The notes below the pieces were generated by a model that saw only the letters and a program-made list of their open reading frames with translations, was not told the DNA's origin and searched no databases. The position numbers and the translations under genes are program-made. A DNA stretch of 64,000 nucleotides from Paraspadella gotoi (taxonomy: Eukaryota; Animalia; Chaetognatha), in the NCBI GenBank assembly GCA_051294375.1, contig CM119269.1, forward strand, positions 1,380,537 through 1,444,536, written 5' to 3'. Positions within the stretch are counted from its first letter, which is position 1. Each line of letters opens with the position of its first letter. This document shows, one piece after another, positions 42,767-45,700 of this stretch.

Positions 42767-45700
42767 ATGTTTACTTTTCGCGCCGTCGTGTTCCTCGCTC
42801 TGTCGATGTTGTCGTCGGCGAAGAAGCTGGATCTCTCCAAGGTGGACTGCAGCAATGCCAGAACCGGAGTCGTGCCCGGCTTCCAGGATTACTGGTACTC
42901 CTGCCGGCCGGATACCTGTAAGGTCAGACCAGGTTTTCGTCTCCAGAAAGTCAGTACTTTCAGAATTTAAACGTATTTTAATTACTTGCTACGTATGAAT
43001 AAATATAAATACGTACAAAACTACTCTATGGTCGTTTATGCAGATAAAATGTGGCTCAGTCGTCGGCCGTCCCATGAAGTGCGGCAAAGACGGCAGGTGG
43101 GTTTTTCCAAAAGTTCCCGCAGGTTGTAAAGGAATTCCAAGTTGGGAAAAGCTTAAAGAGAAGATGACGAATTGCAAACTTGTTTCCAACGGAATTCATG
43201 TTTCCGGTAATTCCAATTTCCAAAAATGGCAAATCCCTAATTCGCCTACCGTATATCTAACTAAGCTCGTCCCATTGGCTCGGACAGCAAAGTACTCGTT
43301 TACTAACCGTGATTTCCGGGTTCAATCCCCTCATGGTCAGGCTGGTTAAGTGTGATGGTGTCGGCATAAAGACGCCAGTGACGGGATGGTCACTGCAGGT
43401 TCAAAGCCCTGAGCGCCAGGTTTCGAGAGAGGTCTCACACCCTGGGCATCCCACATGCCTCCTGAACTCGATTTCAATCCTCCAAGGTGAAACCGAGAAG
43501 TTAAAGTTTTCCGGATGCGTCATGAATTGCACAGTCGAATGTAAGGAAGACGACAAAACTCTCATGCAGGTGAAATTCAATGGCAAAGAACATATGAATT
43601 AAAAACTTGGCAAAATATTTCTCCTCTATGCCGAAGACTATGCCCGACTATTTGCTATTAGTTCGGCGACTAAGTTTGAAACGCGTCGCCGATACTCGAA
43701 GGCTCCCCATATCTACTCACACGCCACCCACTCAGGGTCCGCACAAATTGGGCAAGTGCTCGAAGAAGAAATGGGAGAAAGCCAAAGTTGACAAGTGCGA
43801 GACGGTAGAGGAGATGTTGAAGAAGAACGTGAAGAGGGGAGAGATCTGGGAGAAGGTCGACTGCAGCGTCAAGGACAGAATCGTCACCACAGAAGCCCCT
43901 TCGCAGGAGTTGCTTAGGATATTCAGGTAGAGGGCAATTTATTTATATTTTTTTAACTAATAGTTCCTTAATAGAAATAAAAACACAAGAGAGTATAACT
44001 AATATTTTGTTTAATATAATTCATGGATACCTCGACTACTAAATTCGATCCCTAGTTACACTTTTACCCCGGGCTACGTTATTTGCGAACATTCCAACAG
44101 AAAGTGGGAAAAGAACAACGCGCCCACTCAGTCGATAACCTTGAAGGTGCTTGGTGATAAAAATGAGGAAGAGGAAGAGGAAGCGAACCGCGACTCGATA
44201 TTAAACAGAAATGAGTTCAGTAACTGACGAACGCGTCCTCTATACAAGACGCAGGGGCGGCGAGAGGGGGGGACAAAATAAGAAGGAAAGAAAATAAGAA
44301 AAAAGAAAAAAAAAAATTGAGTGATTATGATAAAAGGTTCAGTCTGTGCAAATAGTTTAACTGATCAAACTGATCAAACTATTTAAGTCAAATCAAGGCC
44401 CCTTTATTGGTAATGTCCCAACTGTCTCAGCGTTATAATCCACTTCAATTTTAATGGAGCCCTGTGGCCCTGTTCCCATGTGGCCCTGTGGCCCATTGGC
44501 CCCGTCCACAGCCCCTCATTTTCAAGCCGGAAAGTCGGTAATCGAAAACTAAAAAATAAAATTATGGAGAGCGGGGGTGGACCTGGCCAGGGGGCCAGTG
44601 GAGGGGCCCGCCATTTCTCTCGCCGCCCCTGCCAAGACGTCTGTAGTAAAATTGAGTAATTACGGCACGATTATGTCGCAAGGATCCACCATCCAATCCC
44701 TTACGTTCCCCGTTCAGCAATTGATCCTGAAATACTCGAAGACTCCGATGGGGAAACCCAAGTTGTTCGAACTGCCTTCCGCCTTCAACCTCGGGAAATG
44801 CAAAGGGAAAGTGTGGGAGAAAGCCAAGGAAGGACCGCAGGTGATCATGTTTGCTCTTCATGTCGGAATCGTGTCAATACATTTTGATCAAAGTCATTCT
44901 CACGAAATGGAGATTCTTCTTCCTCCCCACCCCCCGATTCCTTTCTTTACCTTTTCAATTATTTATATTTTTCTTTCTTTTCCTTTCACTTTCTTCGTTT
45001 TCAACTCTTTTCTTTTCCTCTTTCCATCTTTTTTCTTTTTAATCCTTGCTCCGTTCCCTCCCCTACGCTCACCACTCTCGCCAGGTGTGCGACTACGTTC
45101 GCCAAGAAACGACCGACCCCGCTTATCCTTGGGTGCTGCTGTCGTTGGCCGTCTGCCTCCTGTTGGGCGTGGCCATCATGAACGTGATCCGCGTGGGTCG
45201 AATCCCCGTCCCCTTCACTGTCGTGCTCCTTTTTCTCGGCGTCGCCTTTGGGGGAATCTTTTACGCCGTCTACAAGACGCAGGCGAGAGCCGAGGGTGGC
45301 GCTGTTGGAGGGTGGTGATGATGTTCCTCCGGTGATTTCTTTCAATTCAGGAAGATTGTATTGATCGACGTAGAGGGAAGTCGTTATATATATTAGGACT
45401 GTGGATGGAACACCACGCCTGGGATGGTGTGTTCTCCCCTCTGAGCCAATGGTATTAGGGGTAGCCGCACTCAATGGGGTGAGTCAAAAATTTAAAGTGA
45501 GTAAATGCTCAAACGAAAATTTAGACATTTTTAAGTATACTTTCAATGGACAAAAAGTTATATGGCTCTATACCCTAGTAATTAATATTTTAATATTTAT
45601 TATTTATTTATAGGAAAGGCCCAAATATATTTTGAGAAATTTTACATTTTAAGACCAGATTCATATAGCTCATAAAAAGTTGTCAACACAAAGTATAATT

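Follow-up and report, generated by a model that had tools for sequence, protein, structure and literature searches.

The question raised by this locus of the arrow worm Paraspadella gotoi is whether one gene encodes an SLC9C exchanger that begins with a secreted-type Cys-rich region, or whether two neighbouring genes only seem to be joined. The window analysed is a stretch of 64,000 nucleotides, to which all positions refer. The first-pass annotation had chained six exons, beginning at 42767, into the exon encoding TM1 of the NHE domain; translation bears out that the chain is stop-free, and a transcript contig bears out its splicing into the TM1 exon, with three borders corrected as given below. 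This contig comes from run X1, the only public run containing the stretch, which was taken as RNA from its guessed kind and its splicing; the RNA mapping covered 42450-47640. The contig (2,520 nt, depth 83) has the ectodomain exons spliced to the TM1 exon with the frame kept, and continues into the SLC9C NHE exons. It matches the genome with 0 other letters and 0 gaps (7 pieces listed), its coordinates leave no space for additional letters between the aligned pieces, and the depth is zero in three unique non-exonic bins, as RNA should give. Starting at 42663 with no unaligned leader, it runs through nine successive splice joints, the last to 47531; at the joint that links the ectodomain to TM1 (44840/45085), the shorter side is supported by 122 letters. 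The exons upstream of TM1 thus belong to one spliced message with the exchanger, and the proposed fusion of an SLC9C exchanger to a secreted-type Cys-rich N-terminal region on one transcript stands on these joints together with the SLC9C matches given below.

In a two-gene reading, a small secreted protein and a neighbouring SLC9C would have been joined by read-through, by an operon or in a chimeric contig. The join rests on the single run X1, and 18% of arrow worm genes are described as lying in operons (PMC12460157); however, the two parts are joined by a GT-AG splice that is exact and keeps the frame, the last Cys of the third Cys-rich unit lies in the TM1 exon, and the first Met of this exon (exon 7) falls after TM1. 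The fusion also survived a check for an independent SLC9C start or a poly(A) end before 44718, neither of which is seen in X1. As the contig is unbroken at the exon 6/7 junction, no abundant alternative form is evident (rare forms are dropped from contigs). The two-gene reading is largely refuted already, and we give it next to no weight. Concerning the extent of the single message, the UTR part and exons 1-16 add up to 2,520 nt, as long as the X1 contig. This suggests that the contig covers the NHE domain in full, without settling the frame. The VSD and CNBD are predicted to lie on the same mRNA as the ectodomain, with RNA joints reaching 47531 and the mapping ending at 47640.

The contig opens with a part of the 5' UTR (42663-42766, on the plus strand like all exons of the gene); the true transcript start may lie further out, and no in-frame ATG lies upstream of 42767 without an intervening stop. 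An LTR retrotransposon with RT, RNase H and integrase (37020-42429, plus strand), whose LTRs are identical at 236 of 238 columns, ends 234 bp ahead of the contig start and could affect the promoter. Further upstream on the plus strand, a multi-exon gene at about 34340-36400 is presumably SLC35 nucleotide-sugar transporter-like (by eye; Pfam on one exon gave no match). The plus strand also carries an exon of 1,004 codons that weakly matches Ependymin and BRICHOS (1443-4800) and another gene that looks similar and is partly duplicated (about 15100-26780), and EF-hand-like exons were seen by eye on the minus strand near 10900-14000.

Three of the exon borders first proposed gave way to the RNA. 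Exon 2 ends at 43206 with a GT donor, and the GC donor at 43229, which would have ended this exon at 43228, is unused; exon 3 starts at 43487 rather than at 43341, and exon 5 at 44056 rather than at 44101. The introns of the ectodomain, six in number, are of the GT-AG type throughout. A GC donor is used just 3' of the TM1 exon, at 45283, in an RNA-supported GC-AG intron; a second GC-AG intron is predicted in the same gene at 50273. TM1 starts at about residue 285. The region before it comprises about 284 aa, or about 265 Cys-rich residues after the predicted signal peptide, compared to the ectodomain of about 320 aa originally claimed.

The Cys-rich region contains 16 Cys in three units of six, six and four (Cys28-80, Cys96-155 and Cys177-271), and the counts are even in every unit because the exon borders were corrected. 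Exon 1 (42767-42922) encodes the signal-peptide-like start that had been noticed earlier, predicted here as aa 1-18 by hydropathy only, and the first half of unit 1 (Cys28, Cys46 and Cys51). Exon 2 (43044-43206) completes unit 1 with Cys55, Cys65, Trp71 and Cys80 and starts unit 2 with Cys96. The middle of unit 2 (Cys117, Cys121 and Cys125) is in exon 3 (43487-43569), and its end (Cys142, Trp147 and Cys155) in exon 4 (43736-43926), followed by a linker and the start of unit 3 (Cys177). Unit 3 continues through exon 5 (44056-44146; Cys208 and Trp215) and exon 6 (44718-44840; Cys256 and Trp261) into exon 7 (45085-45282), which encodes Cys271, Pro284 and TM1-TM2; the last ectodomain Cys does lie inside the TM1 exon, its codon being at 45088. 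RNA joints set the borders of exons 1-7. In each unit, a Trp follows the next-to-last Cys by 5-6 residues, and the distance from first to last Cys is 53, 60 and 95 aa in units 1, 2 and 3, respectively. Residues 19-272 hold 50 Lys/Arg against 30 Asp/Glu, giving a net charge near +20, and the N-terminal region has one N-glycosylation sequon.

The motifs reported for the unit starts and unit ends are present, and the repeats exceed chance, but unevenly, unit 1 being the weak one. The match between the ends of units 2 and 3 was equalled in 2 of 2000 shuffles, and its best window in 0 of 300. The pattern C-x4,6-W-E-K occurs four times in the ectodomain and WEK five times, each reached in 0 of 20000 shuffles, both patterns having been picked after looking. 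By contrast, the alignment of unit 1 is not significant against unit 2 (817/2000 shuffles) or unit 3 (430/2000). Unit 3 could be two degenerate modules, as Cys208-Trp215 echoes the end motif. After cleavage of the signal peptide, the mature region would hold eight disulfides and fold as three, possibly four, sushi-like modules. The six intron phases (0,1,0,2,0,0), all inside units, reject a recent classical phase-1 shuffling of intact modules.

Whether these modules are sushi/CCP domains was addressed by spacing, profile and structure searches. The sushi module has four Cys and an invariant Trp (PMC6852297), and the divergent CCP domains in TGM proteins of H. polygyrus have four or six Cys and are split by introns (PMC10516467). 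The units here likewise have a sushi-like spacing, with four or six Cys plus Trp, and resemble the TGM CCP domains in being extracellular, intron-split modules of four or six Cys with a Trp before the last Cys; they differ in length, a sushi module being about 60-80 aa compared to 53, 60 and 95 aa. Pfam Sushi gave no match to eight exon-sized queries, which scanned partial units only, every unit being split by introns, and other Pfam matches to ectodomain exons were at chance level (E = 0.09 and 0.16). PDB sequence searches with exon 2 and with ectodomain alignment A1 found no match, and single-exon folds were of low confidence (pLDDT 58.8 and 47.6), with an empty fold search. On balance, spacing tips us modestly towards regarding the units as sushi-like. 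No further copy of the ectodomain was found within the window by tblastn, and no homologue by a word-based protein search with exon 4, by a metagenome scan, or by phmmer on the best 150 of 156 matches to exon 12 (best E = 0.9).

Alternatively, this region might be cut off and act as a secreted protein of its own, with an ordinary SLC9C remaining. The region is Lys-rich and contains dibasic sites, one of them (Lys167-Arg168) in the linker that separates units 2 and 3; however, the stretch from Cys271 to TM1 has no dibasic site, and cleavage in that linker would not detach unit 3. We regard such shedding as improbable.

Structural similarity searches placed the remainder of the protein next to sea-urchin SLC9C1, which is the top structural relative of exons 12, 14, 21 and 26 (E = 3e-11, 0.008, 9e-6 and 0.004-0.005, respectively); exon 12 scores 47 bits to SLC9C1 compared to 23 bits to SOS1. 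The NHE domain begins in exon 7 and continues through exons 8-10 (46646-46768, 47159-47307 and 47531-47655, with RNA joints to 47531), which contain the Asp equivalent to D209, and exons 11-12 (47858-47973 and 48168-48425), which contain the ND motif. It is completed by exons 13-16 (50155 or 50099 to 50272, 50348-50515, 50587-50787 and 51307-51459), with the equivalents of R399 and R431; borders from exon 11 onward are predicted. Pfam Na_H_Exchanger scores above its cut-off on exons 10 and 12, and a PDB sequence search with exon 11 found no match. The ND motif and the equivalents of D209, R399 and R431 are all kept, whereas the position of E233, a Glu in 9/9 homologues aligned, is Asp here (exon 12). 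For exon 7, the best PDB match is SOS1 (E = 0.005); in the alignment to sea-urchin SLC9C1 (E = 6-7), residue 18 of the exon falls on residue 78. From this weak alignment, Pro284, which lies 13 residues past Cys271, would be the equivalent of sea-urchin P75.

Exons 17-19 (52777-53403, 53590-53748 and 53927-54157; open frames, predicted) encode a low-complexity insert (exon 17), cytoplasmic helices and S1 of the VSD. Exon 17, predicted to have 209 codons, would lie in the cytoplasmic linker; judging from its length, the X1 contig stops at or close to the exon border before exon 17, which is a possible alternative splicing point. Exons 20-21 (55396-55632 and 56149-56369; SLC9C1 match, predicted borders) encode S2-S4. 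In S4, six Lys/Arg occur at every third residue, with Lys at the position of R803, and the S2 Glu/Phe and S3 Asp line up with VSD-bearing homologues. Pfam Ion_trans on the VSD exons stayed under the cut-off (E = 2e-4 and 0.023). Exons 22-26 (56779-56962, 57103-57261, 57906-58112, 60022-60180 and 60711-60950, predicted, with additional 3' exons near 61145-61800) encode a helical domain and a CNBD-like domain. Exon 26 matches residues 1057-1129 of sea-urchin SLC9C1 and exon 24 aligns to the start of the CNBD in homologues; Pfam cNMP_binding on single exons gave no match. By its domain content, namely an NHE with the ND motif and two Arg, a charged S4 and a CNBD-type domain, the predicted protein is an SLC9C.

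Ungapped extension from residue 5 of exon 26, which aligns to V1057, puts a Ser at the position of R1053, the cAMP-binding arginine of the phosphate-binding cassette, and the mutation R1053Q in sea urchin removes the cAMP shift of gating currents (PMC6052114). The exchanger likely no longer answers to cAMP. As the transport residues and S4 are kept and the cAMP arginine is gone, we predict a voltage-gated exchanger, with hyperpolarisation gating, that lacks cAMP tuning. Mammalian SLC9C, as described in PMC10573352, also lacks CNBD residues and is devoid of any ectodomain, so loss of the cAMP site need not be tied to the fusion, nor does belonging to SLC9C demand that R1053 be present.

Two regions of the gene are disturbed in the genomic copy and bear on whether the gene is intact. 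The exon 13 acceptor at 50155 is the last copy of a 56-bp tandem array, in which one extra T shifts the frame, and exon 25 contains indels and frame errors. The first array (48500-50190) offers at least 21 copies of the exon 13 acceptor, and the second (60122-60600) several copies of the exon 25 end and donor; if genuine repeats rather than an assembly artefact, both would supply many alternative splice sites. A gene broken downstream, its product being an ectodomain followed by a truncated exchanger, or a gene in decay would account for the extra T, the indels and the long branch of the protein in the tree below (2.55 changes per column). However, 19 of the 21 acceptor-repeat copies have the in-frame form, the frame is open as well from the preceding acceptor copy (50099), and exons 14-24 stay open over 849 codons with conserved motifs. 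In addition, the adjacent arrays show many single-base differences that by eye look like assembly error. We hold a broken gene to be improbable, marginally more so than shedding.

Compared to sea-urchin SLC9C1 (sNHE; PDB 8pcz, 8otq, 8u6z and 8xq8), the predicted protein shares the NHE-VSD-CNBD order, the ND motif, D209, R399, R431, the charged S4 and an extracellular N-terminus that runs into TM1. It differs in the replacements R1053 to Ser, R803 to Lys and E233 to Asp, in the predicted 209-aa cytoplasmic low-complexity insert, and in its N-terminus: TM1 starts at about residue 78 in sea urchin, with about 77 residues before it, whereas about 284 residues precede it here and include a predicted signal peptide as well as 16 Cys. 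Plant SOS1/NHX7 (PDB 7y3e and 8iwo) has a related NHE domain and gives the best PDB match for the TM1-TM2 exon; however, its TM1 lies at residues 12-37 of the PDB chains, and no SOS1 match was found to the S4 exon.

A HMMER search with exon 12 returned 156 matches, the best 150 of which are compared here. Besides one long diplonemid protein, the closest among the matches listed are two fragments of 70 and 123 aa (68% and 53% identity), which are uninformative on the N-terminus. A TM2 anchor could be placed in 59 of the 150 listed, and ten of these have at least 150 residues before TM1. Eight of the ten carry at least 10 Cys before TM1, seven of the eight with a hydrophobic start, and the six that can be named, directly or via their cluster, are all diplonemids. 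Ion_trans was found in 0/8 of these Cys-rich extended proteins, four of which look partial. Among 40 proteins scanned, five were Ion_trans-positive, three of them named stramenopiles, and in these the NHE begins at residue 47, 54 or 63, or the N-terminus is cut. The assumption that a short N-terminus is usual in SLC9C held for the VSD-bearing homologues sampled but not for the diplonemid relatives without a detected VSD, in which Cys-rich extensions recur. Exon 4, the S4 exon and exon 12, used as queries in word-based protein searches, gave 22, 95 and 127 candidates, respectively, none passing, and these searches missed the known SLC9C1 too; a metagenome scan with the NHE alignment found one locus, L001, at 38% identity.

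The diplonemid SOS1-like exchangers (P0060 of Diplonema papillatum, KAJ9464407.1; P0107 and P0102 of Sulcionema; P0144 of Artemidia; and P0011, in a cluster with Rhynchopus) resemble the P. gotoi protein in having a hydrophobic N-terminus and a Cys-rich region before TM1. Their extensions comprise 200-410 aa with 13-46 Cys, ahead of an SOS1/SLC9C-type NHE domain; they differ in the absence of an Ion_trans match and of any sequence likeness to the P. gotoi ectodomain. The Cys-rich regions of P0060, P0011, P0023, P0107, P0102, P0144 and P0124 are of several kinds, with no Pfam match there, and P0060 and P0011 have a weak ubiquitin-like match in the tail. Other arrangements were also seen: P0002 (Diplonema papillatum, 1,536 aa) has an N-terminal SAM domain and two NHE stretches, and P0072, P0047 and P0130 are SOS1-like exchangers with tail ankyrin repeats or a weak WW match. 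A quick tree of 69 NHE domains, which left out P0002 and 81 rows with short NHE coverage and held no other named animal SLC9C, grouped five of the diplonemid-type extended proteins within one 17-row clade (SH-aLRT 95) and placed the P. gotoi protein outside it, on its long branch. The simplest reading is that the diplonemid extensions likely arose independently, by convergence, the animal sample being essentially sea urchin.

As to function, published work on sea-urchin SLC9C1 describes an extracellular N-terminal tail that reaches the other protomer (PMC10620092), and residues 1-70 that may cap the transport dimer, the tip of TM1 rotating about P75 on cAMP binding (PMC10620091). We lean, at slightly under even confidence, to the reading that the ectodomain works as a binding module, whose partner would be acidic and extracellular, and that it likely tunes exchanger activity. 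The signal peptide would carry the repeats outside the cell, and the ectodomain would sit above the dimer interface, a dimer holding six modules over this moving interface. The basic Cys-rich domain would bind its acidic partner, and this binding may pull on the linker of 13 residues that leads to the hinge proline of TM1, and may shift activity; the outside cue might then stand in for the lost cAMP input. The last two steps are the most speculative ones.

Alternatively, the ectodomain might be a passive cap or anchor that serves folding, surface delivery, dimer stability or placement and leaves gating unaltered. Mammalian SLC9C1 requires a partner, TMEM217, that is reported to be absent from invertebrates (PMC12557800), and is difficult to express alone (PMC10573352), while the unrelated diplonemid Cys-rich extensions, ranging from about 200 to 400 aa, would fit a loose role. 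On the other hand, three modules with 16 Cys and a charge near +20 exceed the needs of a signal peptide, and the linker to TM1 is short. We consider this possible and a serious competitor, of less weight than the binding module.

A bolder form of the binding-module reading would make the protein a receptor-exchanger, in which the sushi-like ectodomain replaced cAMP as the second gate. Sulfated glycans or the surface of a partner cell, once bound, would displace the hinge of TM1 and thereby switch alkalinisation, for instance in sperm within the ducts of an internally fertilising arrow worm, and diplonemids would have reached a similar layout independently. In arrow worms, sperm are described as reaching the egg via a canal, and sulfated glycans as lining the sperm ducts and seminal receptacles (PMC13330366), which makes these glycans a candidate ligand. 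Taken in full, this bolder form is rather unlikely.

The N-terminal ectodomain layout, seen at the transcript level in one run, is new for SLC9C. No SLC9C with an ectodomain was found in the openly accessible literature searched, including the arrow worm genome paper (PMC12460157; term searches of its text and of three supplement files). If the ectodomain is merely an anchor, the architecture is still undescribed in the searched papers. The similar diplonemid layout suggests that the SLC9C/SOS1 N-terminus repeatedly accepts binding modules, and an ectodomain-bearing SLC9C may reveal the role of the unresolved N-terminus of SLC9C1. In the sea urchin, an outside cue acts on SLC9C1 indirectly, via a receptor, cGMP and a K+ channel. 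SLC9C1 has been called the only known transporter under the regulation of a voltage sensor (PMC10620092), and with a natural SLC9C that would bear an outer domain at the moving dimer interface, direct outside control of a secondary transporter becomes testable.
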